Source: an uncultured Planctomycetaceae bacterium
GTDB lineage: Bacteria; Planctomycetota; Planctomycetia; Pirellulales; Pirellulaceae
Assembly (NCBI GenBank): GCA_963698545.1
Contig: CAVORG010000036.1
Location: forward strand, 78,931-102,930
Direction of reading: 5' to 3'
Length of the DNA: 24,000 nt
Positions within the stretch are counted from its first letter, which is position 1. Each line of letters begins with the position of its first letter. A program made the translations under genes and the position numbers. Positions 2,803 to 19,457 of the stretch are shown here, in pieces. Under the pieces are notes generated by a model. It ran no database searches. It worked only from the letters and a program-made list of their open reading frames with translations, and was not told the DNA's origin.

Positions 2803-3558
2803 CGGCCTGTGACGATTCCGCCGGCCCCGCCGCCAACTCGTGGGCGACATAACGCTCCACAAACAACCGATGCGTGCAGCCTTGGTGTCCGCCCAACCAC
2901 ATGGAACGGATCATCTCGGAGGAAAAACGCCGTTGCCGCAGACGGTCGTCATACAGCGATCGCCGACTTTCATCGAGACCCTGGGCGCGCGAAAGCCGAC
3001 AGCGCCCGCCGAAATCGTCCGCCGGCGATCCATCGACCCCAGCAACAGGGTGCCGACTCCGCAGAAGAACAAATCCAGTGGCGAATAGAAGTTGATCAAG
3101 CGGCGACAGCGAGACAGCGTCGGCGCGAGATCAAAGGTGGGCGAGAGGGCGGAGGCCAACAGACACACCGTATCGACCGAAACGTCCTGGGGAAGCATGG
3201 CCACGGCGAACGCGGTGATGCCGGTTCCGCCGGAATGCCCGATCAAATGCACGGGCGCCGATGGATGCTCCTGTCGATACCGCACGATGGATTCCGCCAA
3301 GGCGCCGGCCTGCTCTCGATGCCGTTGGATATCGGAGAGCTGGCCGAGCGTGCTGAACAGTCGTCGGGAAGTCCAGTCCACGACGCACAGGCTATGCGGC
3401 AAGCCGGCGTCGAGCAGGCCATTGACGACATTGCCGTTCAGCGGACTGCGTCCTTCAATGCCTGGCAGGATGTAGATCCGTCCAGCTGGATCTCGTTGGG
3501 GGCAGCAATATCGATCCAGCGGGCCGCACAAAAAGCGCCGGAAGGGCAGACCAAGCAT
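2789..3558 (-). CDS. Alpha/beta-fold hydrolase (GHSGG nucleophile elbow); frame break near 2980-2990; start uncertain
   Basis: ORF 2911..3708 contains HLIGHSGGTGITAFAV, a GxSxG nucleophile elbow. Its first 50 codons overlap frr, so Met51 (ATG 3558) is the more plausible start. After GFRAP the minus-strand frame shifted by one missing base reads QGLDESRRSLYDDRLRQRRFSSEMIRSMWLGGHQGCTHRLFVERYVAHELAAGPAESSQAAPSS and stops at 2789-2791. This restores a C-terminal GGH candidate catalytic His that the ORF-track frame lacks. Confidence 0.65.
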
Positions 3559-3646
3559 GGCGAGCGAGCCTTGCAAACCGCGGCGCCATGCCGAGTTGGA
3601 CCGCCGTGGCTCGACGCCCACCGGCGTCGGGCCGGCGACCGCCGGC

Positions 3647-4210
3647 TCAGACGTCTTCCATGACATCGTGTTCACGGTTCTTGGCCATTTCGTTGACTTC
3701 CGACTCATATTTCTTGGTCAGCTCTTGGATCTCTTCCTTGACCGCGTCGCGCGCATCCTCGCTCAGTTCCTTGCTTTTCTCGGCTTGGTCGGCGGCCTTG
3801 TTGCCGTCGCGTCGCACGTTGCGAATCGAGATTCGAGCTTCTTCGGCCAGGTCCTTGATCCGACTCACCAGATTGCGTCGAACGTCGGCCGAAAGCGGCG
3901 GGATGTTGATGCGGATCAAACGACCATCGTTCTGCGGATTGAACCCTAGGTCGCTGGCGACGATCGCCTTTTCAATGTCCTTGATCGTGCTGGGATCGTA
4001 GGGGCGAATGACCAGCTGCGTCGCCTCGGGGGCGCTGACCGAGGCCAGTTGCTTGAGGGGTTGCAGCGAGCCATAGGCTTCAACGCGCACCGATTCGACA
4101 AGCCCCGGATTGGCGCGCCCCGTGCGAATGCCCGCCAAGCCATTCTTGAGGTGCGACACGGCCTTCTGCATGCGTTCTTCGGAGTCCAGCAGGATATCAT
4201 CCGACGACAT
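3647..4210 (-). CDS. frr: Ribosome recycling factor
   Basis: The 187-aa ORF reads as a full-length RRF (GIRTGRANPGLVESVRVEAYGSLQPLKQLASVSAPEATQLVIRPYDPS...ISIRNVRRDGNK). AAGGAGA lies 6 nt upstream of the ATG. The gene sits last in the conserved rpsB-tsf-pyrH-frr order. Confidence 0.95.
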   Translation of the reverse strand: MSSDDILLDSEERMQKAVSHLKNGLAGIRTGRANPGLVESVRVEAYGSLQPLKQLASVSAPEATQLVIRPYDPSTIKDIEKAIVASDLGFNPQNDGRLIRINIPPLSADVRRNLVSRIKDLAEEARISIRNVRRDGNKAADQAEKSKELSEDARDAVKEEIQELTKKYESEVNEMAKNREHDVMEDV

Positions 4211-4234: not shown

Positions 4235-4999
4235 CTAGGCTTCGTCAGGGACCGGTTTGGCTGAGATCAGCGTACCGACCCGCTCGCCCATCACGGCTTT
4301 GCGAATGTTGCCTTCACGCTTGAAGTTGAACACCAGAATCGGCATTTCATGCTCCATGCAATGGGTGATCGCCGTGGAGTCCATGAACTTCAAGTCGCGT
4401 TGACGAACGTCGTTATAACTCAATTCGCGATACATCACGGCATGCGGATTCTTTTCGGGATCATCGCTGAACACGCCGTCCACGCGAGTCGCCTTCAGCA
4501 CGGCGTCGGCCTCTAGTTCCAGCGCGCGAAGCGCCGCGGCGGTGTCGGTCGTGACGAAGGGTCCGCCGGTGCCCGCCGCCAGGATCACGATGCGGCCCTT
4601 CTGCAGATGGCGTCGAGCTCGGCGACGAATGTACGGTTCGGCGACGCCGTCCATCTTGATGGCGGTCATCAGCCGCGTGTCGCAACCCAGCGACTCCAGA
4701 GCGTCCTGCAACGCCAGACCGTTGATCACGGTTGCCAACATGCCCATGTAATGGGCGGTGGCCTCCTGGATCGCGGCGTTGCTGTACTTGAATTGGGCGC
4801 CGCGCAAGATATTGCCGCCGCCAATCACCACCGCAACCTGGCAGCCAAGCTCTTGGGTCTGCGAGACTTGTCGCGCAATGGCTTCCACCTCCGGCATACT
4901 GATGCCGCGTTCGCCCGCCGTGGAAAAGCTCTCGCCGGACAGCTTCAAGATGATGCGGCAATAGCGAGGTTGCTTGGGCTTATCGGCTTGGTCGGCCAT
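4235..4999 (-). CDS. pyrH: UMP kinase
   Basis: The 254-aa ORF carries UMP-kinase/amino-acid-kinase hallmarks: [63 protein letters not shown] lies upstream of the ATG. The gene lies between tsf and frr. Confidence 0.95.
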
Positions 5000-5052
5000 G
5001 GAGGTCTCCGTAGGTGGTGCGGCTCAGCGCGGGCGAACACGTCCCAACAGAC

Positions 5053-5086
5053 AAAGCCCGCCGCGCTGGAAGGCGCGGCGGGCTTT
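5053..5086 (-). terminator. Perfect 14-bp GC-rich hairpin between tsf and pyrH (intrinsic terminator or attenuator candidate)
   Basis: aaagcccgccgcgc-tggaag-gcgcggcgggcttt. On the transcribed minus strand the stem ends in TTT and is followed by GTCTGTTGGG. It begins about 20 nt after the tsf stop codon. Confidence 0.55.
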
Positions 5087-5104
5087 GGGTTGGATCCGAT
5101 TGAG

Positions 5105-5930
5105 CTAGGCGCCCAGTTCCCAATGAATGAACTTGACCAGCTTCAGACCGCTTTGGTCGGCGTACTTGCCCACGGTCAGTTTGTCATCCTTCACAAACGG
5201 CTGTTCGGTCAACACCCGCTCGGCGAAGTAGCTTCGCAGGCGGCCTTCGACCATCTTGTCGACGATGCTCTCGGGCTTGCCTTCCTTGAGGGCGGCCTCG
5301 CGCAGGATGGTCCGCTCCTGATCCACTTGGGCGGCGTCCAGATCATCGGTCGTCAAAGCGGCGGGCCGCATGGCGGCGATGTGCATGCAAATGTCGCGAG
5401 CGGCGTCGTCATTGCTTCCCTGCACTTGCAGCAAGACCCCGGAAACCGTGCCGGCGTTGTGCGAATAGCCTCCGCAAACGCCGTCGACGCGAGCGATGCG
5501 GCCGACGTTGAACACCTCGCGAATGCGATTGAACAACTCGTCCTTTTGCTCGCCAAGGGTCATGGTGGGCTTGCTGGGCGACGGTTGTGCGAGCAGCTCT
5601 TCGGCATTGGCGGCGCCAGGGCCGGTCGCGAGCTGTTGAGCCAGATCGTTGGCCAACGCGATGAACTCCTCATTCTGAGTCACCGGAGCGCTCTTCGCAT
5701 TGAAGCTCGACGATGGCGCCAGTGGACTTATCCGACCCGCAATAGATCCCGAAGCGGCCGAAACCGGTTTCGCGATCGGAACGGTCCTTGATCAGTTTGG
5801 CGCCGCGCTCACGCAGCCATTGGATGGCCTTCTCCTGGTCGCCGTCAGCAGCGGTCAGCGCCTTCTTGCAATCCATGAGCGGCAAGCCCGTCTGGGATCG
5901 CAGGGCTTTGACGTCAGCGGCGGAAATCAT
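5105..5930 (-). CDS. tsf: Elongation factor Ts, split into two ORFs by one frame break near 5685-5697
   Basis: ORF 5670..5930 holds the EF-Ts N-terminal UBA-like domain (MISAADVKALRSQTGLPLMDCKKALTAADGDQEKAIQWLRERG...AIVELQCE). ORF 5105..5683 holds the rest (VTQNEEFIALANDLA...GVLLQVQG...ICMHIAAMRPAALT...VEGRLRSYFAERVLTEQPFVKD). The two frames abut at tgcgaagagcgctccggtgact, where a +1 or -2 change gives a continuous protein of about 275 aa. GAGGAG lies upstream of the ATG at 5930. Confidence 0.9.
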
Positions 5931-6106
5931 GATCGTGCTCCTCGGTCGTATTCGGTACGAATGGGCGTGTCTTCGAAACTGTCTACAGGGACGGGATGTT
6001 CAGTTATTGGGTTCACTTGGACCAATGGCAACCGCCTTGAAGCCTCAGGGCCCAAGCCGCCAAACGTCCACCGACCCGCGGTGAAGCAAATGCATGCGGA
6101 CAACCG

Positions 6107-6848
6107 TTAGGCGTTGGCCGGCTGCCCCTCGGGCGCGGCGTCCGCGTCCTTCGCCTGCACCGACGCCTCCTGGCGACCGGCGATCACCGCATCAGCGAGG
6201 ATCTTGGCGACCAACTCGATGGAGCGAATGCCGTCGTCATTGCCGGGAATCGGCAAATCCACCGAATCCGGATCGCAATCGGTATCGATCAAAGCGACCG
6301 TGGCGATGCCCAGCTTGTGCGCCTCGCGGACGGCGTTACGCTCCTTGTTGGGATCGATCACCACCAAGCATTCGGGCAGCCGGTTCATCGACCGCAAACC
6401 GTTCAGGTTGCGGTACATCTTGCGGTATTCGCGGTTCAGGGACGACTGCATCTTTTTGCTGTAAGCCTGCAGCTCCTCGCCGCCCCGGATCTTTTCCAAT
6501 TCCTCCAAGCGGGTCAAGCGACTGCGAACCGTGCGGAAATTGGTCAGGGCGCCGCCGAGCCAGCGCTCGCTGACAAACGGCATATTGCAGCGCGAGGCTT
6601 CGCGTTCGATCGCGGCGCCCGCTTGCCGTTTCGTGCCGACAAACAAAATCAAGCTGCCGCCCGAAGCCACCTGCGCAAGATACTTCTGCGTGCGCGCAAC
6701 AACCCGCGCACGGTCTCGCGAACGTCGATCAAGTGGATCAGGTTCTGCGAGCGTAAATGTAGGGGGCCATTTTCGGGTTCCAGCGACTCGCGCGGTGACC
6801 GAAATGAACTCCCGCCTCAACCAACTGTTCGACGAGCGTTTCCGCCAT
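6107..6848 (-). CDS. rpsB: 30S ribosomal protein S2, interrupted by two frame breaks (about 6741-6746 and 6688-6700)
   Basis: The true N-terminus [35 protein letters not shown] starts at ATG 6848, preceded by AGGAG, and hits TGA after agaacctga. The next frame reads [18 protein letters not shown]. The third frame, which is the ORF-track frame, continues [51 protein letters not shown]...[43 protein letters not shown]. Together these make a normal S2 of about 247 aa. Confidence 0.9.
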
Positions 6849-7067
6849 GTGAGCGAACTCCTAGACCGTCCAGGCGATGCTTGGCCAACGTCGCCGACAA
6901 GGCGAGCGAAAGCGTCAAACACAGGGGCGCCCTTTGCCTGTGGACAGCAAAAGCGTGCATTAGCCATTTCCAGCCCGGACGCACGCGTGACCCAGGACTG
7001 GTCCAAGGAGTCGATGCCCGCTCCTTGCAAACCAAATCGCATAAATTACCAGCGCCGCGGCCGATGG

Positions 7068-7533
7068 TCAATTGTAGTCGGCCCGCTCGTCGTCGCCGGT
7101 CTCCCAACCTGATGGGCGATCCGAGACGAGAACCTCATCGTCCGGCGCCTGGCGGCATCCTCCTGTCGTGGACGCCGCTGCACCGGACGGCCCCCCCGCA
7201 CACTGAGGCAAGTCGGACAATTCGGCGCGTTTTCGCTGCAGCATGGATCGGCATCCGCCGCAGTGCTCCAAATGGCCCGCGACCTGCGACTGCAACGTCG
7301 GGACCCAAGCCGCCTTGGATGTAGCGAGCCAGTCGGGGACGAACATCCGAGCAGGTGTAGTAGTAGGGCCCGACCGGGGAAGCATCCCAAGCGGCAATGC
7401 ACCACGCCGCGATGATCGCGGACGCCAGACCGGCGCCGGCGACAATCCACCGCGGCCACCGCGGACTTGGCCGCCGAGTCCGTTGCGCCAGACGCACCAG
7501 CTCCCCTCGCTGGCAACGTTCCCAACTTGACAT
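7068..7533 (-). CDS. Small membrane protein with a zf-HC2 (anti-sigma-like) zinc-finger motif; frame break near 7285-7300; start uncertain
   Basis: Frame of ORF 7135..7557: MSSWERCQRGELVRLAQRTRRPSPRWPRWIVAGAGLASAIIAAWCIAAW (a TM helix), then YYYTCSDVRPRLARYIQGGLGPDV. Frame of ORF 7068..7445 continues QSQVAGHLEHCGGCRSMLQRKRAELSDL. Joined, they give the C-x(n)-H-x3-C-x2-C pattern of zf-HC2 domains. Confidence 0.4.
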
Positions 7534-7675
7534 GGATGACTTTTTCTTCGAGATCAAGGAACCGGGGACTTTCGCGCCCGCTCCAGAAGATCATGACGAT
7601 AAAAACCGACGGCGTCTGTGAACCTCGTCACAACTGAATCCGACGCTCGGAAATTTCCCGCGACTCTCCAACCGT

Positions 7676-8431
7676 CTAAGGCACCGGCTGCCGGCCGGCC
7701 GCGGCCACTGGGGCTGCCTGCGGCGTGGTCGCCGCCGCAATCGGCGGTTGAATAATCTCCCGCATCGCCCCGATCCTCAGCAGTTGAATTCTCCGCCGAC
7801 CTATCCGCAACAAGCCTTCCGCTTGCATTTCACCCAGCACGACCGTCACCGTCTCTCTCGTGCTGCCAATCACATTGGCCAGATCTTGATGCGACAGGCC
7901 GATGCCCAGGCGAATCCCTTCTTGTTCCGGCTGCCCGTACCGATCCGCGAGTTCCAGCAACAGATGCGTCAGCCGCTCTCGATTAGAGAGAAACAGCACG
8001 TTCTTCAGCCGCGTTTCGATCCTTCGTCGGCGGAGGCCGATCATCTTGGTGACGCCCATCGAGAGGTCCGGGTTGTAACGCATCATCTCCCGCAAAATGG
8101 CCTTGGGCACCATGACGACGGTGGAGGCCTCAATCGCCTCGGCGTATTCCTCGCGGACGCCTTCGTCGTCCAGGAGGGCCAATTCGCCGAACATGTCGCC
8201 CGGGTCGATCAACGCCAGAATCGACTGTTTGCCGTCGGGAGTCAGGTGACAGATCTTGGCTCGTCCGGACGCCAGAATCAGCACCGCGTCCGCTTGATCG
8301 GCCGGAAGGTAAATCGGCGATCGACGGGCGAAGCGGCAGGCGCGGCTTCGATCTTCGATCATTCGCAGCTGGTCGTCCGGCAACCGTTGCAGCAAATCGC
8401 ACTTTTTCAGAAACCATAAGCGCTCTGACAT
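7676..8431 (-). CDS. Crp/Fnr-family transcriptional regulator (cNMP-binding domain plus C-terminal HTH)
   Basis: ORF 7676..8548 is trimmed to Met40 (ATG 8431), which has GGGAGA 5 nt upstream. The cNMP-binding fold is seen in FLKKCDLLQRLPDDQLRMIEDRS...GDMFGELALLD. The Crp-type HTH is seen in LSHQDLANVIGSTRETVTVVLGEMQAEGLL. Confidence 0.85.
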   Translation of the reverse strand: MSERLWFLKKCDLLQRLPDDQLRMIEDRSRACRFARRSPIYLPADQADAVLILASGRAKICHLTPDGKQSILALIDPGDMFGELALLDDEGVREEYAEAIEASTVVMVPKAILREMMRYNPDLSMGVTKMIGLRRRRIETRLKNVLFLSNRERLTHLLLELADRYGQPEQEGIRLGIGLSHQDLANVIGSTRETVTVVLGEMQAEGLLRIGRRRIQLLRIGAMREIIQPPIAAATTPQAAPVAAAGRQPVP

Positions 8432-8549
8432 CAGATTCTCCCTAAATCGAAGCCGAGGGCATTGTTGCTCGAAACGTGCAAAACGTCCAGTGAACACCGA
8501 GCTTTCGCGACCGGTGGCCGCGAGCCCCCGCACCCTGGCCGCGAGCAAT

Positions 8550-8558
8550 TGCTATATT
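8550..8558 (+). promoter_or_regulatory. Extended -10-like element TGCTATATT upstream of the three-gene operon, adjacent to the palindrome GCAATTGC (8545-8552)
   Basis: It matches TGnTATAAT with one mismatch. It lies 47 nt upstream of ATG 8605, in the 173-nt divergent intergenic region shared with the Crp/Fnr gene. There is no convincing -35. Planctomycete promoters are poorly defined, so this is tentative. Confidence 0.25.
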
Positions 8559-8604
8559 GAGGGGGTCGCTCGGCCAGCTTCTTCGGCTCCAGCCCGTGAT
8601 TCCC

Positions 8605-9636
8605 ATGCACGACATCGACGATCTGCGGCCCGGCGCGGCGGCCTGCCTGTTTACCGATGACATGGCCGCGGCCCGGTATTGGCTGGAGGAGCAAGCCTCT
8701 CGCAGCGACGATCTGCGGCTTGTCCAATGGAGCTGCACACGTCTCCCGCCGCTGAGTCGCCTAAGCGACGCCTTCCTGGCGACCATGGCGGAAGCCGCCT
8801 GGATGCTCTGGCCCGACTGGCCCGACGACTCGCCGCCCGCCGAGGACTCGTCGCCGAATAAGACGCCGGATCGGCAACGGGAAGTTCACGCCGCCTGGAG
8901 GCGAGCCGCCGCAAGTCGGTGTGAGCGAGGGTTGTCGCCGATCCTGAACAAACACTCTTCCGCAATGCAAATTCGTCAGCTCGCACGCATCCTGGCCGCG
9001 CGCCGGCTGGTGTTTGTGGTGATTGTTGAGGATCCGAGTCCGGAGACGGCCAGCCTCTTGGCGCTGGCCCGCGGCTTGGAATGGCTGGCGCGAGAGTCCC
9101 AAGCGGGCGTGCTGGCCGTGTTGCCGACATCGTTCAAGGAGCACGACGCCCTGGACAGCATCAGCTTCGCCGAGCTGTCGTCGAGCCCGGCAGGGGCTGC
9201 GAGCGAGTCGCCAGCGGCAGACATCCAGGATCGCTCGGAAGAACGCAAGCATGTGCTTTGTCCGGTGATCGGCCGCCCCCATCCGGGCAGTCCGGGAGAG
9301 CAACTGCTGGCCGGGCAACTCTCGGTCGATGAGGAACTCGCCGGACAATTCGAATTCAATCAGCGAGTCGTTACGCGATCCGACAGCCGCTATCTGGTGG
9401 ACCTGCTTTGCCGAGCGGGGCGCCTGGTGGTGGAGGTCGATGGATACGGTCATCATGCGTCTCGGTCGGCGTTCAACTCCGATCGCCAACGCGACTACGA
9501 GCTGCTCATCAGCGGCTACCAGGTGCTGCGATTGCCGCATGACTTCGTTGTGCAGGACGTGGTGCTGGCGGTCGCTCGCATTCGCGAAGTATTCCGTTTC
9601 CGCCTACGCTCCCTTGGGCAAGAGGTATGGTCATGA
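8605..9636 (+). CDS. Protein with an unknown roughly 240-aa N-terminal region and a C-terminal DUF559 / Vsr-like endonuclease-fold domain (operon gene 1)
   Basis: ORF 8557..9636. The first ATG is at 8605; TTG 8557 and GTG 8596 are alternatives. The C-terminus is PHPGSPGEQLLAGQLSVDEELAGQFEFNQRVVTRSDSRYLVDLLCRAGRLVVEVDGYGHHASRSAFNSDRQRDYELLISGYQVLRLPHDFVVQDVVLAVARIREVF. It follows the DUF559 pattern (SxxE..L, F..Q, Y.vD, l.vE.DG..H, DR.RD..L...G..VLR). The stop TGA 9634-9636 overlaps ATG 9633 of the next gene. Confidence 0.75.
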   Translation: MHDIDDLRPGAAACLFTDDMAAARYWLEEQASRSDDLRLVQWSCTRLPPLSRLSDAFLATMAEAAWMLWPDWPDDSPPAEDSSPNKTPDRQREVHAAWRRAAASRCERGLSPILNKHSSAMQIRQLARILAARRLVFVVIVEDPSPETASLLALARGLEWLARESQAGVLAVLPTSFKEHDALDSISFAELSSSPAGAASESPAADIQDRSEERKHVLCPVIGRPHPGSPGEQLLAGQLSVDEELAGQFEFNQRVVTRSDSRYLVDLLCRAGRLVVEVDGYGHHASRSAFNSDRQRDYELLISGYQVLRLPHDFVVQDVVLAVARIREVFRFRLRSLGQEVWS

Positions 9637-10455
9637 GTTTCGAGCCGGACAGTTTTCAACGCTTGTTGCTATTGCGATTGGCCTTCACCGATGAAGGCGG
9701 CGAATTCCTCAAGGACCTGGACATCAAGTCCATGGTGGCGCCGCGGCGCAAGGCGTTGCAGCGGGAGGGGCTGACCGAGGAAAGCAATCGGAAACCAGCC
9801 GACGGAAAACGCCCTGTGACTTTCATCAGTCTGACCGAGAAGGGATGGGCCTGGTGCAACGCGAATCTGCGCGACTTCTGCGGCGATGTGAAGCGGCCGG
9901 TCAAGATCATGCTGCCGTTGATGTCGGCCCTGACTCGCAGCATGGCGGACTATTTCCAGCGTCCCGAGGCGCCGGCCTCGCTAGGCGAGTTTGTTCAGCA
10001 GTCTCTGGAAGCCCGCGCCGTCGCGGAGCGGCGCCATCGGCGGCCGACTCATCGGCGGCCGACGCGGCGCCGGCCGACGCGGCGCCGCGGCCGACTCATC
10101 GGCGGCCGACGCGGCGATCGCCGAGACGGCGGCGTCTTCAGCGACCGAAGCCACGGGCGACGCCGAGGTCGAAACGGCGATCGATTTACCCCAAGCGATC
10201 CGCTCGGCTTGTCTGGACTTGACCGCGGGTCGCGTGAACGTGCGGGTGCGTCTCTCTGATCTGCGCCAACGCTTGTCCGGCGCCGCCAAGACCGACGTGG
10301 ACCAGACGTTGTTGGCCATGGAAACCAGGGGCGAGTTGTCGCTCTATCGCCTGGACAATCCGCAAGAGATCGGACCGGACGACCGAGACGCCGTGTTGAG
10401 CACGCCCACCGGCGCCGAACGACATATTCTGTACTTTGGCGGAGCCTCCACATGA
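9633..10455 (+). CDS. Hypothetical two-domain protein with an acidic Ala/Asp/Ser/Pro repeat linker (operon gene 2); two frame breaks in the linker (about 10027 and 10086)
   Basis: ATG 9633 overlaps the gene-1 stop as ATGA, with AAGAGG 7 nt upstream; ATG 9627 is in frame as an alternative. N-terminal half, from ORF 9627..10259: MSFEPDSFQRLLLLRLAFTDEGGEFLKDL...VTFISLTEKGWAWCNANLRDF...SLEARAVAE. Linker in the frame of ORF 9845..10222: AAPSAADSSAADAAPADAAP. C-terminal half in the frame of ORF 9991..10455: ADSSAADAAIAETAASSATEATGDAEVETAIDLPQAIRSACLDLTAGRVNVRVRLSDLRQRLSGAAKTDVDQTLLAMETRGELSLYRLDNPQEIGPDDRDAVLSTPTGAERHILYFGG. Both halves look winged-helix-like; this is my inference with no search behind it. 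Confidence 0.55.
10042..10116 (+). repeat. Direct repeat of a 28-nt unit inside the gene-2 linker, with a 13-nt partial copy between
   Basis: ggccgactcatcggcggccgacgcggcg occurs at 10042-10069 and again at 10089-10116. ggccgacgcggcg occurs at 10072-10084. The full copies are offset by 47 nt, which is one short of 48, so they fall in different frames. This is consistent with a 1-nt deletion between them. Confidence 0.8.
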
Positions 10456-13400
10456 ACGAGTCAGGGGCTTTAGCAGCATTGGCCGCGGCGCAGTTCGACT
10501 GGGCCATGCAACTGCAGGAAGTTTGGAACGATGCAACCGTCGACGTTCCTCGGATTCACGCGACGGCGCGGGGGAAGATCGCCGCGGAACTCAAGAGCTT
10601 GGCGTCGCAGCGGCCGACCACCTCGCCGTTGGGGCTGGTGTTGGTGGGACCGGGCGGTTGCGGCAAGACGCATCTACTCGGCGCTGTGCGGCGCCTGGCG
10701 GCCGCTCAAGGCGCCTGCTTTGTCCTGGTCAACATGACCGATGTTCGCGACTTCTGGGACGTCGTGCTGCAGGGCTACATCGACGCGTTGCAAACGCCTT
10801 ATGTCAATGGGCGGTTCCAATACGAAGCGCTATTGAAGCGGTTCATCCAGGGCGTCTCGTCGGAGGAAAAGGCGGGCAAGGTCTTCGAGCGTCTGACGAC
10901 CAAAAAGTCTGTCGCGCTGGGCAAGGACATCAAGCAAGTCATCGAATTCCTGCGGCGCCGTCATCCGCGGGAAACGCTGAAGCATCAAGACGCGGTTCGC
11001 GCGCTGATCTGTTTGAACTCCACGGACATCGACACCGCCAGCGCGGGCTACTCCTGGCTGCAAGGTTCGGAGGTCGACGCGGATCTGGTGCGGCAACTGG
11101 GTTTTCAAAAACCTCAACAACAACAACGATCCATCATCGCCGCGCTCTCCTGGTTCATGAGTCTCAGCGGTCCGACCGTGATCGCCTTCGATCAGTTGGA
11201 TCCGATTGTGCATCAGGTCGGCCGCTATCGACTGGAAGGCGACGAAGCCGCCCAGGACGGCCTGGCGACGGCCCGCGCGATCCTGGAGCAAATCGCCGGC
11301 GGCCTATCCGGCATGCGCGACACGGCCACCAAGTCGTTGATCCTGGTCTCATGCCTGGAAAGCACTTGGAATCTGTTGGGCGAAATGGCTCTGCAGACAT
11401 TCCAGGATCGCTTCCATCCGCCGGTGCGTTTGCAGAGCAGCAAGGACGACCAGGCGGACGCATTCCGCGCGATGGTCGCCGGCAGGATGGCCCGCGGCAA
11501 TCAACGCGCGAAGTACGACCCGCCTTATCCCACGGCCCCGTTTCGCACCGAGGCGTTTGAAGCGCTGGCCAACTCGACGGCTCGCGAAGTGCTCAAGCTC
11601 TGTGAGGAGCATCGCCGCCGTTGTCTCGAGGCGGGGCAACTCAGCGAGTTGCTCACGTTCGAACAAGCCGCACCCTCTCCGCCCCCAACGCCTGAGGACC
11701 AAGACGAATGGACCTCGTTCGACCGTGAATTCGAACAACTGAAGGCGGCGGCGAACCCCGATCAGCTTGTGGATCCCGCGCATGAAGACGATCTGATGGC
11801 GCCGCTCTATCGCACCGCGATGCAGTGCTTTGTGCACGAGCATGAATTGCCTAGCGATGTCAACGCGTTGGTGGAAAGCGAATTCGCCGGCGGCAAGACG
11901 ACCGTCCCGCTTCATGCACGCCTAAGGTTTGTGTTCTTGCAGCAAGGAGGCAAAGAACAGCATTTCTGCGTGCGAGTGTTGCAACGCCGCCATCACGCGG
12001 CTTACGGCACCCGGCTGAAAGCCGCGATGACGCAATCGGGCATCGACAAGTCGCTGCCTTTCCGACGGCTGACTATTATCCGCACGGGCGAGACGCCCGG
12101 CGGCCCGAAGACCGAACAACTGACGGCAAGATTTCGAGCGGCGGGCGGCAGGTTCCATGAACCGGCCGAAGACGAGATCCGTTCGCTGGCCGCGCTGCAA
12201 GAGATGGCGCTGCGGAACGCGCCCCGATTCACGCTCTGGCTGCGACGCCGGCAGCCGGTGACGCGGTTGAGGCTCGGCGAAGCACTCGCGCCCGACTCGC
12301 CCTGGCAGGACTCGCCGCTGGCGGCGGACACGCTCGCTGGATCCAGCATCCCGCCAACCAGTACGACAACGCCGACCAGCACGACCACGCCAACCAGCAC
12401 GGCAACGGAAACGGAGGAAGCGGTCGCGAAAGCAAAAACAAAAGAACGGGCCGACGACGAACCGGCGGCGACGACGGAACCCACGGGCGGTGCAAGCAAC
12501 TCCGGCCCAGCAAGCGTTGAACCCGCCACGACGGCCTTTGCGCGGACCGGGCGGCTGCCGTTGGGCAGTCGGTTGTTCGGCCAAGGGCGGCTGGGAGAGG
12601 TGGAGTCACTGCCGCTGGCGACGCTCGCCAAACACGTCATGATTCTTGGCGGCGCCGGGTCGGGAAAATCCGTGACGGTGCGGCGACTGGTCGAGGAGGC
12701 GGCGTTGGAGGGCGTTCCCTCGATCGTGATCGACTGTGCTCAGGATATGGCGCTGTTCGACACGGACTGGGACCAGCCGCAGAGCACCTGGCGAGACGGC
12801 GACCCGCAGCGAGCTCGCCAGTTGCGGGAGACGATGGAACAGATCGTCTGGACGCCGGGATCGCTAAGCGGCGGCAATCCGTTGAGCCTGCGGCCGCTGC
12901 CCGATTTCACTCCGGTCAAGGACGACGACGAGGAACTGCAGGATGCGGTCATGATGGTGTGCGACGGGTTGGTGCATCTGGTGGCCAAAGGGTCCTCGCA
13001 GAAGTCCGAACTGAAGAAGGGGATCCTGGTCCACACGCTCAAGCAATTCGCGCGGCAATGCCCGGCGGGCGGCTTGCAGGGCTATATCGATTTCCTGAAA
13101 GAGCTTCCGGCCGACGCCGGACTGGGCATTAGCTCGGAGGCGAAGCTGGCGGCGGAAATGGCCGAGAGCATCATGGTGGAACAGACCCGGAACCCCTTGC
13201 TGGCGCAACAGGGCGCGCCGCTGGACCCGTTGGTGCTTTTTGGCGACGACAAACCCTCGCCGCGCGTTCGCGTCTCGGTGGTCAGCCTGGTGAAGCTGAA
13301 GGGCGAATCGGCGGCCCAGTCGTTTGTGAACCAGTTGGCGATGATGCTGTTCTCCTGGATCAAGGCCAACCCAACGCCGCCGGCGGGTCGCGCCTTACGG

Positions 13401-13823
13401 GGCTTGTTGGTGATTGACGAGGCCAGGGATTTCGCACCTTCGGGGCGAACCACCCAATGCAAGGAGAGCCTGATGCGGCTGGCGGCGCAGGCGCGAAAGT
13501 ATCGTCTGGGCCTGGTCTTCGCGACGCAGCATCCCAAGGATGTGGAGACGAAGATCGTTGGCAACTGCGCAACGCACTTTTATGGACTGAACAATTCGCC
13601 GGCGTCGCTGGCCACCCTGAAGGACTTGATGGCGCAGAAAGGCGGTGGAGGCGACGACATCGCTCGCTTGAAACCCGGCCAGTTCTATGTCCACAACGCG
13701 GAAGCCGGCCATCGAGCGCCGCTGAAGATCCAAGTGCCCCTGTCGCTGTCGTACTCTCCCAGCAACCCCTTGGATGAACAACAACTGATGGCCAAGGCCG
13801 CAGCTTCCCGTGAGCGGTTGTGA
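10452..13823 (+). CDS. 1123-aa tandem P-loop NTPase: N-terminal AAA-like module plus C-terminal HerA/FtsK-like (DUF87-type) module (operon gene 3)
   Basis: Intact ORF. ATG 10452 overlaps the gene-2 stop TGA 10453-10455, with GGAG 7 nt upstream. Module 1 has Walker A GPGGCGKT (10647-10670) and Walker-B-like VIAFDQLD (11178-11201). The linker is IPPTSTTTPTSTTTPTSTATETEEAVAKAKTKERADDEPAATTEP. Module 2 has Walker A GGAGSGKS within HVMILGGAGSGKSVTVRRLVEEAALEGVPSIVIDCAQD (12648-12671) and Walker B LLVIDEARDF (13404-13421). It then reads ARKYRLGLVFATQHPKDVETKIVGNCATHFYGL, the HerA/FtsK/VirB4-type pattern. Confidence 0.85.
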   Translation: MNESGALAALAAAQFDWAMQLQEVWNDATVDVPRIHATARGKIAAELKSLASQRPTTSPLGLVLVGPGGCGKTHLLGAVRRLAAAQGACFVLVNMTDVRDFWDVVLQGYIDALQTPYVNGRFQYEALLKRFIQGVSSEEKAGKVFERLTTKKSVALGKDIKQVIEFLRRRHPRETLKHQDAVRALICLNSTDIDTASAGYSWLQGSEVDADLVRQLGFQKPQQQQRSIIAALSWFMSLSGPTVIAFDQLDPIVHQVGRYRLEGDEAAQDGLATARAILEQIAGGLSGMRDTATKSLILVSCLESTWNLLGEMALQTFQDRFHPPVRLQSSKDDQADAFRAMVAGRMARGNQRAKYDPPYPTAPFRTEAFEALANSTAREVLKLCEEHRRRCLEAGQLSELLTFEQAAPSPPPTPEDQDEWTSFDREFEQLKAAANPDQLVDPAHEDDLMAPLYRTAMQCFVHEHELPSDVNALVESEFAGGKTTVPLHARLRFVFLQQGGKEQHFCVRVLQRRHHAAYGTRLKAAMTQSGIDKSLPFRRLTIIRTGETPGGPKTEQLTARFRAAGGRFHEPAEDEIRSLAALQEMALRNAPRFTLWLRRRQPVTRLRLGEALAPDSPWQDSPLAADTLAGSSIPPTSTTTPTSTTTPTSTATETEEAVAKAKTKERADDEPAATTEPTGGASNSGPASVEPATTAFARTGRLPLGSRLFGQGRLGEVESLPLATLAKHVMILGGAGSGKSVTVRRLVEEAALEGVPSIVIDCAQDMALFDTDWDQPQSTWRDGDPQRARQLRETMEQIVWTPGSLSGGNPLSLRPLPDFTPVKDDDEELQDAVMMVCDGLVHLVAKGSSQKSELKKGILVHTLKQFARQCPAGGLQGYIDFLKELPADAGLGISSEAKLAAEMAESIMVEQTRNPLLAQQGAPLDPLVLFGDDKPSPRVRVSVVSLVKLKGESAAQSFVNQLAMMLFSWIKANPTPPAGRALRGLLVIDEARDFAPSGRTTQCKESLMRLAAQARKYRLGLVFATQHPKDVETKIVGNCATHFYGLNNSPASLATLKDLMAQKGGGGDDIARLKPGQFYVHNAEAGHRAPLKIQVPLSLSYSPSNPLDEQQLMAKAAASRERL
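12354..12407 (+). repeat. Three tandem 18-nt units encoding (PTST[TA]T)x3 in the inter-ATPase linker
   Basis: ccaaccagtacgacaacg / ccgaccagcacgaccacg / ccaaccagcacggcaacg, in frame within the 1123-aa ORF. Confidence 0.85.
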
Positions 13824-13831
13824 AACGCCCT

Positions 13832-13861
13832 GCAAGCCGCTCAAGGATCTTGCCGGCTTGC
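13832..13861 (+). terminator. Imperfect hairpin immediately after the operon stop codon
   Basis: gcaagccg...cggcttgc forms an 8-bp outer stem with an inner caag/cttg pairing. It starts 9 nt after the TGA at 13821-13823. No T tract follows, so it may be a non-canonical or bidirectional terminator, or nothing. Confidence 0.3.
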
Positions 13862-14125
13862 CCCGTTGGGACGAGCCCGAATGGCGTGAACTTACGGCGA
13901 ACGAGGGGGCGTGAACTTGTGGCGCGCTGGCGGGGAGCAGCGCTCCGCTGGGACAGGCCGGACAGGCCCAGCGGTGGCGGGAATCTGCCGGTAAGTCGCG
14001 CTTTGCTTCATGCCAGTTTTAAAGGGCTCGCCTCCCGGTGACGGCTAGAATTATGTCGGCCCTCCCGGTCTCGGAGATCGCAGCGACGCCTGTTGGAAAA
14101 TCTGGAAGTTATTTTTCGGGCGCCA

Positions 14126-16819
14126 TTAAGGCTTGGCAATCAGCAACTTGGCCAACGTTGAGGCGAGGTCTTGCAGCGAATTCTCATTGGGCAGCGTGAA
14201 GCGGACGTTCAGTCGGCCTTGATCGTCGCGTTCGACGCATTGGTCCAATCCAGCCCGAACTTCGTTGACCATCTGAGAGTCCGGAGCCCCGCCCGTATCC
14301 AGCAGCTCGCCGACCAGCTTGAGCGCGGCGCCGAGCAACTCGCCGCCGGCGGCGGCCACCTTGTCCCTCCGCGCGGCGATGATCTGAGCTTCGGCGTGCA
14401 CGGCGCGCTGCTGGGAGGCGTCGATCGGCGCGGCCGTTGGCTGCCCTAACAACTGTTCCAAGCGCCGCTTCAATTCGTCAATCCCGCCGCGCATCTCCAC
14501 CTCGGACACATTGGAATCGACATCCAGCGCGGCCAACGCCAAATCATGCTTGGCCGACAGCGTCCCCAGCAGTCGCTCCTCGATCGTGTCTTCGGTGACC
14601 AACAGATAAACCTGAACGGGATTTTTCTGGCCCATGCGATGAGCGCGAGCGATGCGTTGTTCGAGAACCGCCGGGTTCCACGGCAGATCAACGTTGATGA
14701 TCGTATTGGCTGCCTGCAGGTTCAAACCGGTGCTGCCGGCGTTGCTCATGATGATCGCTTTGCAGTCTTTGTCGTTCTGAAAGCGATGCACCAACACCTG
14801 TCGCTTCTTTTGGGGCACCTTGCCGTCCAGGCGCACGAAATCGAAACCGTTCGTGGAAAGCACGGGCTCGATCAGGTTCAGCATCGTCGTCCACTCGCTG
14901 AACAACACCAGCTTGCGGTCTCCTTCGGCGGCGAGCTGCGCCAAGAGCTCATTCAGGTGCTCCAACTTGCTGCTGTAGGAAGGCTGCTGCTTGTCCACGA
15001 GAAACGTGCTGTTGCAGGCCATGCGGGCCATGAGCAGGAATTTCTGCAGTCGCAACAGGTCCATCTCGGTGAGAAACTTCTTGCGGGCGATCAACGCGGC
15101 GCGCTTGACGTACTCGTCGCTAAGAACATGCTGCTCCTCGGTGGGCCGGATGCGCAGGATCTCGGTCGTGCGTTCGGGCAGTTCCCGCATGACGCTCGCG
15201 CGTGCGGCGCAACAGGATGGGTTTTAACTTGTCGCGAAGTTGGTCCAGGTTGCGATAGCCTTCGACTTTTCCTCGTTCATCGACAACGCGGTGGCGATTC
15301 AGGAAGCGATAGGCCGGTCCCAGGCGTCGGTCATCGATGAAGCTGACGACCGTGTAGAGCTCCTCAAGTCGATTCTCCAGGGGCGTACCGGACAAGACGA
15401 GCGCAAAGGTCGACTTCAGCGTCTTGATCAACCTCGAGGTTTTGGATTCCCAATTCTTGATGCGTTGTCCTTCATCCAGAATGATCAAATCCCACTTCTG
15501 CATCTCGATGGCCGAGTGATCGCGGAGCACCTGCTCGTAGTTGCAGATCGTGAAGAACGCGGCGGATTCATATTGCGCCGCGCGCTCCTCGCCGTTGCCA
15601 AGCACGATTTGGCTCGTGCGGTCGCTGAAGCGACTGATCTCGCTGCGCCACTGGCTCTTCAAGGACGCGGGACAGACGATCAACACTCGCTCGATGCCGG
15701 CCAGGCGGGCCAGCAATTCGGCGACGCCGATCCCCTGAATGGTCTTTCCCAATCCCATGTCGTCCGCCAGGATCGCGCGGCCGGCTTGGGCGGCGAACGC
15801 GATTCCGTCCAATTGATAGGGCAGCAATTCGGCGTGCAGCAATTCCGTGCGCAGCGGATGCCTGGCTGGATCTCGCCGGATCTCTTCGGCGGCTTGTGCG
15901 ATTCGTTTCTGCAGCAATCGTTGCTCGATGAATTCCTCGGCGTCAGGATAAATGTGAACCGAATGGCCGGCTTGTTCGAGCTTTCTCATTCGCTTCAGCA
16001 GATCATCGACGTTGTCAAAGACGCCCTCGGCCAAGGGTCCGAGGATCTTGCGGACCTGATCGTCCAAGCGAGTGGGCAGGTTGAAGTGCAGCCCCAGTTC
16101 CCGGCCGTACTCCAGACGGAGCGAGAGGTTTTTTCGCCGATAGGGCTTCGCCAGCGTCTTGTTCGGAAATCGCTTCTTGATCTTCTCCTGGGCGTGCAGA
16201 ATATGTTTGCACGTGCCGAGATGATTGGTGCGAAAATCGGGACACGAGCAATAGGACATCCCCGGCTCCAGGCCTCGGAGCGAGACGCGGTAGGTTCGGC
16301 CCGACATGTGGCTGGTGACCGTGTAATCCGCCCAGGGAACGTCGGGATTCAAGGAGCGGAGCGTCATCTTTTCGGCGGCGGCGCGCTCCTGCCGGTCGGC
16401 CAGGCGCGGTGCATCAACTCGTCTTCGGTCAACAGCTCGATCGGCTCCGAGGGATCGGGAGGCGCGGCGAGGCCGAGCGTCAACTTTTCCTCCAGCACCA
16501 TTCCCAGGACCGCGGCGATGTGGTCGCAGCAGGCGTTGCAGACCTCGCAGTGCAAGTGCAAGCCCTTGGGCTTGGCGGCCATCTCGGTGACGATCACGTT
16601 GGCTCGCCCCTCCGGCGCGCCCGGGTCCGGCACGCTCACTCGCAGCGTGTCGCCGCCAAGATAAACGTCGCAGGACGGGTCGATGTCGTACAGCCCGCCG
16701 CGTCGCAGACGGGCCTCGCCGTCTTCGTCCCCCATCAAGCGACAGGCCGCGCGGTAGGTCAGCTGGCCCAGTCGCTCCCGAATGCCCTTCCGCCGCTTCT
16801 GACTTCGCGATCGCACCAT
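14126..16819 (-). CDS. SNF2-family helicase with a SWIM zinc finger (about 897 aa); two frame breaks (about 16399-16405 and 15196-15206)
   Basis: Stitched from ORFs 16364..16819, 15120..16946 (only its part from LADRQERAAAEKMTLRS onward is real) and 14126..15190. The junctions are ELMHRA|LADRQERAAAEK and KPILLRRTR|..VMRELPERT. SWIM motif: YCSCPDFRTNHLGTCKHILHA. SNF2 motifs: LADDMGLGKT, ILDEGQRIKN, LSGTPLEN. Helicase-C motifs: LVLFSEWTTMLNLIE, QRIARAHRMGQ. GAGAGGA lies upstream of ATG 16819. Confidence 0.85.
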
Positions 16820-17284
16820 TTCGAGTTCCTCTCGATGACTCCCTTGTCCTAGTCGCCGTCATTGTGGCACGGGCCTGGCCCCTTGAAAAGTCGCTCCAAG
16901 CATCATTACGACAACGCGCAACGTTAACGAATCGGGCCGCCGTCATTGTCCGGGTGGTGGCGATCTGCCCGCGAGGCCGTGTGGATCACCACGGAGAGCG
17001 CGGAGCAACACAGAGGACAGAATTGCAGCCACCTTTGTGGTTCTCCGTGTCCTCCATGGTCAATTCCATCCGGATTCTTCCTGACTTGATGCTCATGGGG
17101 TGAGCGAAGCGCAACCCTGGGAAGCGGCTTTTCGCCTTCGAACTGTGTGTGACGGCCATGGCCCTCGGCGTTTTGTGTAGACTGTGGGAATACGCTTTCG
17201 GCCGAGCCGGTTTGGCGGGCGTGCCGGTTGCTGACACTCTGTGTTGACCTGCCGGGTCGCGGTAAATTCGTTTCATGGCGTGAC

Positions 17285-19457
17285 ATGACAAATCTTTGCA
17301 TCGGCCTGTTGCTGCTGGCCCATGGCGGCGACGGTCCTGTGGACTTTGATGCGGACGTCGCACCGATCCTGACCAAAGCCGGTTGCAACGCCGGTGCTTG
17401 CCATGGTTCAGCGGCGGGCCGCGGCGACTTTCGCCTGTCGTTGTTCGGAGGCGACTTGGCGGCGGATTATGAACAGATCGTGTGGGCCCTGGAGGGGCGC
17501 CGCATCAACTTGAAGCAGCCGGACGCGAGCCTCTTGCTGACCAAGCCCACCGAATATCTCACGCACGGCGGCGGGCAGCGCTTGGAGTACGACGGCCCTT
17601 GGGCGAGAATCCTCCAACGGTGGATTGAGGAGGGCGCGGTGCGCTCCGAGCAGCCGTCCACGCTCGAGGCGATCACCGTGGACGTGCGCCCCTCGGAGAA
17701 CGCATCCGAGCGTTGGACGTTCGCCATCGACGTCCACGCTCGCTTTCGGTCAGCGCGGGGCGACTTCACGCGAGACGTCGCCGAGCTGTCGATTCTGACC
17801 CCCGATGATCCACAAGCGGTCCTTGTGAAGCCTGGCGGCGTGGTGCATGTCGCTCGGGCCGGCCGTCATACCTTGATCGTCCGTTACCTGAATCAAATCC
17901 AAGCCGTCTCGCTGACCCGCGGCTTGACGCCGGTCGCTGACGTCGCACGCGGCGAGGGCTTGAAGACGAGCGGGAACTGGATCGACGACGAACTGGACGG
18001 CTTGCTGCGCGCCTTGGGGGCGCCGGCTGCTGGACCGTGCGAAGACGGTCCGTGGCTGCGCCGCTTGACCTTGCGGCTAACTGGCCGCTTGCCGGAGGCG
18101 GCGGCCGTCAAGGAATTCCTGGAAGACGCGCGGCCGGACAAGGACGCCTGGGCGATCGAACGCCTGCTGAATTCGGATGAATTCGCGCAGTATTGGAGCT
18201 TTCGGCTGGGCCAGTTGCTGCGGCTGCGGGTTTCCCAACGAGACTCAGCCGGCGATCGTCTTCCGCCAATGGCTGACCGCACAGCTGCGGCAAGATCCAG
18301 CGGATTGGGCGTTGATGTCGCGAACCATGTTATTGGCCCAGGGAGATACGCATGAAGTAGGCCCGGCCAGCATTCACCGTTTGGCGGCGGGTCCGCGCGA
18401 GCAAGCTGAGTACTTCAGCGAAGCGTTCTTGGGGGTGCGTTTGCGATGCGCGAATTGCCACAACCATCCGCTGGATCGTTGGACGCAGGACGACTACCAC
18501 GGATTGGCCGCGATCTTCGCGGGCGTGCAACGAGGCCGAATTATCCGGCTCACCCAAAGCGGCGAAGTCGTTCATCCGCGCACCGGCGAGGCCGCCATGG
18601 CGAAAATCCCCGCGGGCCCGATTCTTAACGGCGCCCAGCGACGCTTCCGCCGACTCGCCTCGAAACTCAAGGGACGCGCCCGAGCGAATCGAACGACTCG
18701 CCGATTGGCTGACATCGAGGGAGAACCCCTGGTTCGCCAAGGCGATCGTGAATCGGCTGTGGCGCGAGCTCATGGGCGCGGCCTGGTCGAGCCGGTGGAC
18801 GATCTCCGCAACTCCAATCCGGGAGTCCATGCCAAGCTGCTCGAGCGTTTGGCGGAGGACTTTCGCCAGCATGATCACAACCTGCGGCGGACGCTAAAGC
18901 TGATCGCGCAGTCGGCGGCCTTTCGACGCTCGGCGATCAACCCGCATCCGCTTGCGGACGGCGGCTATTACGCTCGCTTTGCGACCTCGCCCATGCAAGC
19001 CGAGGTGTGGTTGGACGCCATCGCCGACGCTACCGGCGTCCCCGCAGTCTTCGGTAAGGAACAACAAGCGGCCCGCGCCGTCCTGCTGCAGGATCCATTG
19101 GCTGAGAACGACTCGCTGGATGTCATCGGCCGTTGCGATCGTCAAGACTCGTGCGATTCAGGCGGCGCAGGCGCCAGCGATTTGCGCGTCCGATTGCATC
19201 TGATCAACGGACCCTTGTTGAATGCGCGATTGAGCAGCCCGCAAGGCAAGCTCGCCGAATGGTTGAGCAACGACGCGAAAGACCCGAACGAGATTCTCAA
19301 GTCCCTGTATCTCGCAGCCTTGGCAAGATATCCTCGTGACGATGAGCTCTCATTTTGGCGAAAGGAAATCGAGAACCTGACTCGCGACGAGCAGCGATCG
19401 TTCTGGGAGGACGCGTTCTGGAGCGTGCTCTGCTCGGACGAATTCCTGCGGTATTGA
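17285..19457 (+). CDS. DUF1549/DUF1553 (PSD1-type) planctomycete family protein with an N-terminal Cys motif; three frame breaks (about 18228-18232, 18590-18640, 18774-18780)
   Basis: Stitched from ORFs 17228..18355 and 18177..19457, plus a third-frame segment. N-terminus: MTNLCIGLLLLAHGG...ILTKAGCNAGACHGSAAGRGDFRLSLFG. DUF1549-like: WIDDELDGLLRALG...RRLTLRLTGRLPEAAAVKEFLED...ERLLNSDEFAQYWSFRLGQLLRLR. DUF1553-like: VRLRCANCHNHPLDRWTQDDYHGLAAIF. The third-frame segment ERIERLADWLTSRENPWFAKAIVNRLWRELMG rejoins GRGLVEPVDDLRNSNPGVHAKLLERLAEDF. Confidence 0.8.

Follow-up and report, generated by a model that had tools for sequence, protein, structure and literature searches.

A planctomycete operon joining a DUF559 nuclease, a winged-helix-like protein and a two-motor ATPase: a candidate 'HerA/FtsK capture' system

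One class of predicted anti-invader systems, named 'HerA/FtsK capture', is coupled to an Orc/Cdc6 AAA+ ATPase (PMC10853773, NAR 2024, section 22). Its core comprises the Orc/Cdc6 ATPase, a HerA/FtsK ATPase, a winged helix-turn-helix (wHTH) component and an active restriction endonuclease (REase), with the domains spread over one or several polypeptides. An inactive REase sits as an insert after the AAA+ core and ahead of a C-terminal wHTH, the active REases belong to two families, one version of the HerA/FtsK ATPase lacks FtsK-alpha and carries a 4-helix insert, and a subset of the systems has a fast-evolving protein carrying 2-4 wHTH domains. The loci are described as 'mobile gene neighbourhoods' that show traits of mobile elements as well as of defence. 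According to the 'HerA/FtsK capture' hypothesis, defence systems catch the DNA of invaders at the stages of segregation, transfer or packaging (PMC10853773); it is proposed that HTH domains bring the apparatus to such DNA at these stages and that HerA/FtsK pumps this DNA to the nuclease (sections 25-26). A further paper restates the class and its mechanism (PMC12839542), and both studies are computational. Here we describe a three-gene operon at positions 8605-13823 of a 24,000-nt stretch (hereafter the window) of contig CAVORG010000036.1 from an uncultured Planctomycetaceae bacterium. With a probability that we put at roughly 0.55, it encodes a three-subunit, ATP-driven, DNA-targeting machine of this Orc/Cdc6-AAA+-coupled 'HerA/FtsK capture' class.

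The window has a high GC content (~0.57-0.67) and contains the planctomycete hallmark genes PSCyt2/PSD1. The operon consists of three reading frames arranged head to tail on its + strand. Gene 1 (8605..9636) encodes a predicted nuclease of 343 amino acids, gene 2 (9633..10455) a putative tandem winged-helix-like protein whose frame is disrupted in the window, and gene 3 (10452..13823) a protein of 1123 amino acids in which an AAA+ ATPase is fused to a HerA/FtsK ATPase. An earlier, sequence-only reading of this stretch had pointed to translational coupling of the three genes, and the features on which it relied are all in place: start and stop codons overlap as ATGA at 9633-9636 and 10452-10455, and Shine-Dalgarno-like elements, AAGAGG at 9620-9625 and GGAG at 10441-10444, each lie 7 nt 5' of the downstream ATG. 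As read from the sequence, the two junctions thus occupy 9620..9636 and 10441..10455 on the + strand. Such tight junctions are not a matter of chance, because in related loci the median distance from the gene 2 stop to the gene 3 start is -4 nt (n=76) and that from the gene 1 stop to the gene 2 start is -1 nt (n=61). The same reading placed the operon at 8550-13861. A gene 1 start at 8550, or at a TTG at 8557 that would give 359 amino acids, is less likely than the ATG at 8605, which is favoured by the source record, whose gene 1 call P0138 (343 amino acids, 100% identical) starts there. It is highly probable that all three proteins belong to a single machine that acts on DNA; this is a judgement from the conservation data given below and not a computed value. 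We infer that the machine is a physical complex and that its target is DNA.

Gene 3 contains both predicted motors, and its AlphaFold2 model is confident, with a predicted local distance difference test score (pLDDT) of 87.6. The two Walker A/B modules claimed from the sequence are both present in the 1123-residue chain, and both sets are conserved. The first P-loop comprises Walker A G66-T73, with K72, and Walker B D247-D250; the second comprises Walker A G734-K739 and Walker B D989-E990. Across 68 homologues, residues G66, G69, G71, K72, Q248, D250, G736, G738, K739, D989 and E990 never vary, and T73, D247 and G734 are at least 90% conserved. The AAA+ ATPase, delimited with Pfam and AlphaFold2, spans residues 1-410 (10452..11681, + strand) and is modelled with a pLDDT of mostly 80-95. 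It carries Walker A as GPGGCGKT at residues 66-73 (10647-10670) and Walker B as FDQLD at residues 246-250, and the model places a large helical insert between strand 2 and the Walker B strand, followed by a C-terminal helical lid. Pfam AAA_16 and AAA_22 match it at E ~5e-11. Across the N-termini of 59 homologues, AAA_16 matches all 59, AAA_22 30, BrxC_BrxD (PF10923) 10 (best E=5e-9), IstB 7 and DnaA 2, and some are matched by STAND families. NCBIfam models return P-loop matches to Hda, IstB and DnaI, and a profile search of the PDB gives generic AAA+ matches only (E 0.004-0.07), with no ORC/Cdc6 among them.

The AAA+ ATPase is followed by an Arg-rich alpha/beta domain at residues 411-622 (11682..12317, + strand), which AlphaFold2 models with a pLDDT of ~87-97 as a helix, three strands, a helix, a strand and then further helices. 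Searches of this middle domain with Pfam, PDB sequences and HH comparison gave no match. A canonical D...(D/E)xK motif is missing, and H488, R490, E502 and H504 are conserved in its place; together with E463, also conserved, these residues fall roughly where the PD-(D/E)xK fold carries its E, D and ExK. Going by secondary-structure order only, the domain could hold a variant metal site instead of being a dead nuclease. The same order of elements, set against the class description in PMC10853773, makes it a candidate for the 'inactive REase + wHTH' portion. The domain probably binds nucleic acid.

A disordered linker rich in Thr, Pro, Ser, Ala and Glu (residues 624-694; 12321..12533, + strand), recognised by a pLDDT below 50 and variable alignment columns, leads to the HerA/FtsK ATPase, which covers residues 700-1123 and the stop codon (12549..13823, + strand). 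This part opens with a short beta hairpin and contains Walker A as GGAGSGKS at residues 733-740 (12648-12671) and Walker B as LLVIDE at residues 985-990 (13404-13421), after which R1015/K1016 and an ATQ1026 motif are conserved. Four helices are inserted between core strands at residues 826-913 and, judged from secondary structure only, probably form a bundle. The HerA/FtsK type that had been proposed for this second module is upheld by Pfam, PADLOC and Foldseek together. Pfam assigns FtsK_SpoIIIE and DUF87, while PADLOC matches mad8 (E=2e-23) and several HerA models. The best Foldseek match in the PDB is HerA-NurA 9x1m (E=1.5e-12), and others include HerA 4d2i, Sir2-HerA, DUF4297-HerA and TrwB (E 1.5e-12 to 1e-8, probability 1.00); the matches thus take in HerA chains of defence complexes that have a nuclease or a NADase bound. 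With a mean pairwise identity of 51% over 50 complete loci, the set to which all mean identities given here refer, it is the most conserved portion of the cassette; the corresponding values are 0.35 for the AAA+ ATPase and 0.35 for the middle domain.

The C-terminal part of gene 1 bears out the DUF559/Vsr-like endonuclease that had been claimed for it. Pfam DUF559 (PF04480) matches at E=3e-10 over 9346..9588 on the + strand, which corresponds to residues 264-344 in the 359-residue numbering. A match to MTES_1575 (PF18741, E=6.5e-4) stays under that model's cut-off. E248, D283, E293-x-D295, H300 and D309-R310-x-R312-D313 are kept in at least 90% of 50 homologues, and by sequence the C-terminus is a predicted DUF559/Vsr-like PD-(D/E)xK nuclease with intact catalytic-type residues. 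The preceding N-terminal domain of ~250 residues is very fast-evolving, with a mean pairwise identity of 23.5% versus 44% for the DUF559 domain. No relative turned up in Pfam or among PDB sequences, and by HH comparison it resembles none of the domains of gene 3. Its function is probably to dock the nuclease to the motor or to sense the target.

For gene 2, the two winged-helix-like halves proposed in the sequence-only reading are plausible, but in the window they do not form a single intact open reading frame (ORF). The frame-0 ORF starts at 9633 and stops at 10259, and the conserved C-terminal half lies in frame +1, in an ORF at 9991-10455. Accordingly, the N-terminal half runs from 9633 to ~10031 in frame 0 and the C-terminal half from ~10090 to 10455 in frame +1, both on the + strand; jackhmmer recovers them in two frames (query residues 1-124, E=2e-23; query residues 107-215, E=3e-34). 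Between the halves, at 10040..10116 (+ strand), lies an exact 30-bp direct repeat with copies at 10040-10069 and 10087-10116. The copies are 47 bp apart, which is not a multiple of 3, and it is there, in the GC-rich linker, that the reading frame is lost. The Ala/Asp/Ser-rich acidic linker can be recovered only by reading frame 0, then 2, then 1, and the gene 2 product of the public record, P0121, is truncated at 208 amino acids. Homologues are single ORFs of ~205-270 amino acids. At E<=1e-3 the family has 1414 representatives in a library of 1.84 billion proteins (~1,400 clusters at 50% identity), and the members listed are almost all stand-alone proteins of ~200-270 amino acids. In P0263, P0311, P0395, P0398 and P0407 (263-283 amino acids) the profile matches in two separate stretches. 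Since several homologues match in this way, their linkers being expanded as in the window, variation in linker length is a trait of the family.

Gene 2 has no Pfam, NCBIfam or PADLOC match, and its mean pairwise identity is 0.30. The AlphaFold2 model of the intact homologue P0128 (pLDDT 75) consists of two halves, each with helices and a beta-wing, connected by helices and a disordered linker. Foldseek relates this model weakly to PadR, MarR, MukE and RNA polymerase III subunits (E>=0.02, probability up to 0.98). On this model a tandem winged helix is plausible. Gene 2 is the obligatory partner of gene 3 and is most likely in charge of DNA recognition or adaptor contacts.

The disrupted frame raises the prospect that the operon is decaying in this genome, gene 2 being a true pseudogene produced by slippage at the linker repeat and the system being non-functional here. 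The two halves do lie in different frames, the break coincides with the 30-bp repeat whose copies are 47 bp apart, and the deposited record calls a truncated 208-amino-acid product. Genes 1 and 3, however, are intact and preserve all catalytic residues, and two further genes of the window are also frame-split. One encodes an SNF2-family helicase on the - strand (14126-16946), convergent with gene 3 and split into ORFs 15120-16946 (SNF2-rel_dom) and 14126-15190 (Helicase_C), which lie in frames -2 and -3 with the junction at ~15031-15198. The other is a planctomycete PSCyt2 (DUF1549)/PSD1 (DUF1553) gene on the + strand (17228-19457), split into ORFs 17228-18355 and 18177-19457; being the third gene in 10 kb whose frame is broken, it hints at assembly indels. 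Because the SNF2 and PSCyt2/PSD1 genes are also broken, assembly indels are favoured over a true pseudogene, and decay of the operon appears unlikely.

The cassette is far from confined to this genome. A scan of one genome per species, 185,579 species genomes in all, returned at least 573 matching stretches (~0.3%), sporadically distributed over many phyla, and gene 3 has hundreds of full-length homologues. The best 80 of the at least 573 stretches were analysed as loci. They span at least seven bacterial phyla and include Planctomycetota, Cyanobacteria, Alphaproteobacteria, Myxococcota, Acidobacteriota and Actinomycetota, and among them are also Polyangiaceae, Sumerlaeota, Hydrogenedentes and many actinomycetes. 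Six-frame profile searches of these 80 loci found a gene 2 homologue directly upstream of gene 3 in every locus with upstream DNA. In 59 of 69 loci, gene 2 is in turn directly preceded by a full-length gene 1 homologue with both domains. The pairwise identities of the genes correlate with one another (Spearman rho 0.53-0.83), and the genes of the cassette therefore travel together. Whether they are conserved neighbours outside this genome, a check that the sequence-only reading had called for, can be answered in the affirmative, as their order is kept across at least seven phyla. The notion of one conserved three-gene unit stands in that the genes co-occur in order across phyla, but it has to be qualified by the loss of gene 1 from 10 of the 69 loci, in which no consistent substitute gene was seen. 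It follows from this loss that the invariant core is gene 2 plus gene 3.

The rates of divergence differ strongly within the cassette. The asymmetry between motor and nuclease (51% and 44%) on the one hand and gene 2 and the gene 1 N-terminus (30% and 23.5%) on the other is typical of conflict systems. An alphaproteobacterial metagenome-assembled genome, MFD04463.bin.1.108, carries two divergent complete cassettes on different contigs (L047 and L055), and two strains of Xanthobacter autotrophicus (L044 and L065) carry cassettes in different contexts. Both observations are consistent with independent acquisitions.

From these data a mechanism can be sketched. Gene 3 would unite two motors in one chain, an ATPase of the AAA_16/BrxC-BrxD (Orc/Cdc6-STAND) kind and a HerA/FtsK ring translocase, joined by a flexible tether of ~70 residues. 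Gene 2, with the AAA+ and alpha/beta modules, would pick out some feature in the DNA of an invading element or of one in transfer; ATP binding would then bring about oligomerisation, the HerA/FtsK ring would pump duplex DNA, and the DUF559 nuclease would cut it. Such a sequence of events would parallel those of NurA-HerA, Sir2-HerA and DUF4297-HerA. We consider the odds to lie slightly in favour of anti-invader defence of the 'capture' type as the role of the cassette.

Several observations weigh against a capture-type defence role. Besides the ten loci that dispense with gene 1, they concern first of all the surroundings of the cassette. There is no conserved fourth gene beside it, and the flanking genes differ between loci; the commonest neighbour families (ABC ATPase, SDR, ROK, TetR, sigma-70, GidA) are of ubiquitous kinds and each occur in at most 12 loci, and the flanks consist mainly of housekeeping and metabolic genes. 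PADLOC scans of 147 flank ORFs from 45 loci and then of 123 ORFs from 33 further loci gave no defence-gene enrichment among the neighbours, in a setting where flank ORF picking is crude in high-GC DNA and sensitivity is therefore limited. Among the PADLOC matches listed for the first set, the top families have two members each, which is consistent with the window's two SNF2 fragments, and 40 further families have at most 2 members each. The second set yielded PDC-M02B (2), a methyltransferase (1), a PD-T4-6 kinase (1) and a mad6 kinase (1). Enrichment of known defence genes in the neighbourhood is reportedly the operational criterion of screens of the Doron et al. type. With housekeeping flanks and few PADLOC matches, the outcome of the defence-island check is essentially negative.

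Signs of mobility are equally scarce. The absence of tRNA genes from the window, noted earlier from the sequence, is borne out, and tRNA genes occur within 10 kb of the cassette in 7 of 60 loci, one of them adjacent, which is no enrichment. Integrases are absent from the recurrent flank families, although the flanks were given no integrase-specific screen; relaxase and replication genes are likewise not among these families. The cassette was found on 3 of 72,556 plasmid records, two of which are chromosome-sized, and in no phage record searched. The cassette is thus sporadic and self-contained, outside recognisable defence islands. Two further points concern the proteins: the wHTH assignment of gene 2 rests on a pLDDT-75 model and weak Foldseek matches, and the frame break means that the present copy may not work. 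Literature searches found no experimental study of any member of the class.

The negative island test, the rarity on plasmids and the absence from phages keep alive a different role, that of a chromosomal DNA-repair or maintenance machine, a NurA-HerA-like end-processing or recombination complex of large-genome bacteria in which the DUF559 nuclease would resect or nick DNA fed by the HerA ring. The housekeeping and metabolic flanks, which include rpsB/pyrH in the window and rpsB in a second locus, accord with such a role, as do the paucity of nearby defence genes and the repair HerA-NurA complex among the closest solved folds. It is nevertheless doubtful. A function present in ~0.3% of species genomes, scattered over phyla, is not a core function; the flanking genes are not conserved between loci, one genome holds two divergent copies, and the very rapid divergence of the putative recognition parts is out of the ordinary for repair proteins with a housekeeping function.

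A related suggestion, which we regard as similarly improbable, makes the invariant gene 2-gene 3 pair a new type of self-loading dual motor that acts on chromosomal DNA in large-genome, developmentally complex bacteria instead of providing classical phage defence. The ORC-like AAA+ module, guided by the tandem-wHTH subunit, would load the tethered HerA/FtsK ring on a recognised DNA structure. Given that 14% of loci do without it, the nuclease would be no more than an optional output that can be exchanged, and a chromosomal role of this kind would explain the housekeeping neighbourhoods and the near-absence from plasmids and phages.

Quite remote is the proposal that the cassette serves a cryptic mobile element as its module for DNA processing or transfer, with the HerA/FtsK motor pumping the element's own DNA like TraB/TrwB and the nuclease and wHTH protein acting at the element's origin or ends: the top structural matches include TrwB coupling proteins, Pfam and NCBIfam return weak TraD, VirB4 and TrwB matches, the 'mobile gene neighbourhoods' of PMC10853773 combine mobile-element with defence features and the cassette is abundant in actinomycetes, but no fourth gene is conserved, no relaxase, integrase or replication gene recurs in the flanks, the few plasmid records are mostly chromosome-sized and tRNAs are not enriched at the borders; we rate this function as less likely than a repair or maintenance role.

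Several neighbours of the operon and of its relatives deserve mention in their own right. In the window, a Crp/Fnr-type regulator (cNMP_binding and HTH_Crp_2; 7676-8548, - strand) is divergent from the operon and shares with it an intergenic region of ~175 bp, with probable starts at ~8431 and 8605; it is not conserved beside the cassette in other loci. A housekeeping cluster on the - strand, 1.5 kb upstream of the operon, contains rpsB (6107-7042) and a pyrH-like UMP kinase gene (4235-4999). In L020, which is without gene 1, an rpsB gene (54-1037, 42% identical) lies ~1.6 kb upstream of the cassette, and this shared neighbour could be a relic of synteny or could be due to chance. At the start of the window, a run of + strand ORFs between 180 and 3663 (180-479, 476-1021, 1043-1330, 1338-1742/1433-2023, 2081-2767 and 2767-3663), whose ends overlap or abut and which have no Pfam match at E<=0.001, may be another uncharacterised operon.

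Downstream, the halves of the split SNF2 helicase match PADLOC ZorD, DpdE, DrmD and BrxHI (E down to 2e-41). The sequence-only reading had drawn attention to this neighbouring gene, but it is not a conserved partner: an SNF2 neighbour occurs in 3 of ~80 loci, and L008 is the only one in which it is adjacent and runs in the same direction; there the homologue has 1149 amino acids and an SNF2_assoc domain and lies 8 nt 3' of gene 3 on the same strand. Two cyanobacterial loci without gene 1, L003 (11282-13930) and L026 (13233-15995), have an LRR-Roc-COR gene, encoding a ROCO-type GTPase, directly 3' of gene 3 and on the same strand; the copy in L026 is split into three ORFs. In a locus from Polyangiaceae that also lacks gene 1 (L035), the gene 2-gene 3 pair is placed between two large same-strand genes at 5026-8904 and 13487-17254. 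The upstream gene encodes a 1293-amino-acid SMC/Rad50-like ATPase (AAA_23, SMC_N), and the downstream one, 4 nt 3' of gene 3, a WD40-repeat protein of 1256 amino acids.

The cassette is widespread and strongly conserved as a unit, yet it is unnamed and has no model in the defence databases, and three of its domains have no Pfam model. With two classes of ring ATPase in one polypeptide and a nuclease alongside, the cassette would put the 'HerA/FtsK capture' hypothesis directly to the test. If a defence function proves true, the cassette would add a system characteristic of Planctomycetota, Cyanobacteria, Rhizobiales, Myxococcota and actinomycetes, groups that are poorly covered by defence catalogues; if not, it would be a new DNA-maintenance machine.

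Comparison with described systems shows several partial likenesses. Neither PADLOC-DB v2 nor NCBIfam r20 has a model for the cassette, the best matches being mad8 and HerA models for the ATPase core. In Hhe (Gao et al. 2020), a DUF559/MTES_1575-type Vsr-like nuclease is said to serve as the effector of a defence protein driven by a nucleoside triphosphatase, reportedly within one polypeptide with a superfamily 1 helicase and with no HerA, AAA+ domain or wHTH subunit; the operon proteins have no PADLOC match to Hhe. For MADS, mad8 is the best PADLOC match of the gene 3 C-terminus and aligns over model positions 20-299 of 314. MADS, the methylation-associated defence system, is an operon of eight genes, mad1-mad8, with a methyltransferase. 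The present operon has three genes and a single mad8-like domain, gene 1, gene 2 and the first 700 residues of gene 3 have no mad match, and there is no methyltransferase in or beside the operon. The cassette is accordingly not assigned to MADS.

Dnd and BREX systems share individual building blocks. In DndFGH, DndH ends in a captured HerA/FtsK domain and acts with the multi-wHTH DndG and a REase domain. In BREX, BrxC/BrxD are Orc/Cdc6-type AAA+ ATPases, and their family PF10923 is the one that matches 10 of 59 gene 3 N-termini. The operon differs from both in having no DndF kinase, inactive DAM or SWI2/SNF2 modules, PglX methyltransferase or PglZ, and the single relevant PADLOC match, to BrxF, is negligible (E=0.043).

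The HerA-effector pairs (Sir2-HerA, DUF4297-HerA) and NurA-HerA, to which gene 3 is related by Foldseek at E 1e-12 to 1e-9, likewise combine a HerA-fold ATPase of hexameric type with a nuclease-type effector that has a gene of its own, the operon being translationally coupled. Here, in contrast, the HerA part is fused behind an AAA+ ATPase and an extra domain, a putative tandem-wHTH subunit is obligatory, and the effector is DUF559 and not Sir2, DUF4297/Cap4-like or NurA. The PADLOC HerA models cover only short Walker stretches of gene 3 (residues 724-763 or 975-1044, E 6e-11 to 5e-3). The NCBIfam anti-phage HerA model reaches 32 bits against a cut-off of 850, and Pfam and PADLOC scans gave no Sir2 or DUF4297 match, which places the cassette outside Sir2-HerA and DUF4297-HerA.

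The closest likeness is to the Orc/Cdc6-coupled 'HerA/FtsK capture' class. Shared with it are an AAA+ ATPase, a HerA/FtsK ATPase without FtsK-alpha and with inserted helices, a nuclease of the REase superfamily predicted to be active and a sporadic distribution. Candidate counterparts are the alpha/beta domain, placed between the AAA+ core and the helical region after it, for the inactive REase and wHTH, and fast-evolving gene 2, with its two putative winged-helix halves, for the separate multi-wHTH protein. Specifically, gene 3 has the HerA/FtsK ATPase with the 4-helix insert; gene 1 supplies the active REase (DUF559, E=3e-10) in 59 of 69 loci; and the 'mobile' distribution is mirrored in the at least 573 stretches, the unconserved flanks and the two copies in one metagenome-assembled genome. 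The text of PMC10853773, on the other hand, nowhere mentions DUF559 or Vsr, and the class has no gene names and no PADLOC or NCBIfam models; the Orc/Cdc6 clade of the gene 3 AAA+ ATPase and the REase fold of its middle domain are candidate assignments here. The architecture had been put forward from sequence as one not recognised in any named system. It is indeed unnamed and was met in no experimental study, but the same domain set already figures in PMC10853773 and PMC12839542. Taken together, the cassette is of a kind already catalogued computationally and still unnamed, and it joins two predicted motors, a predicted nuclease and a winged-helix-like partner in one operon.

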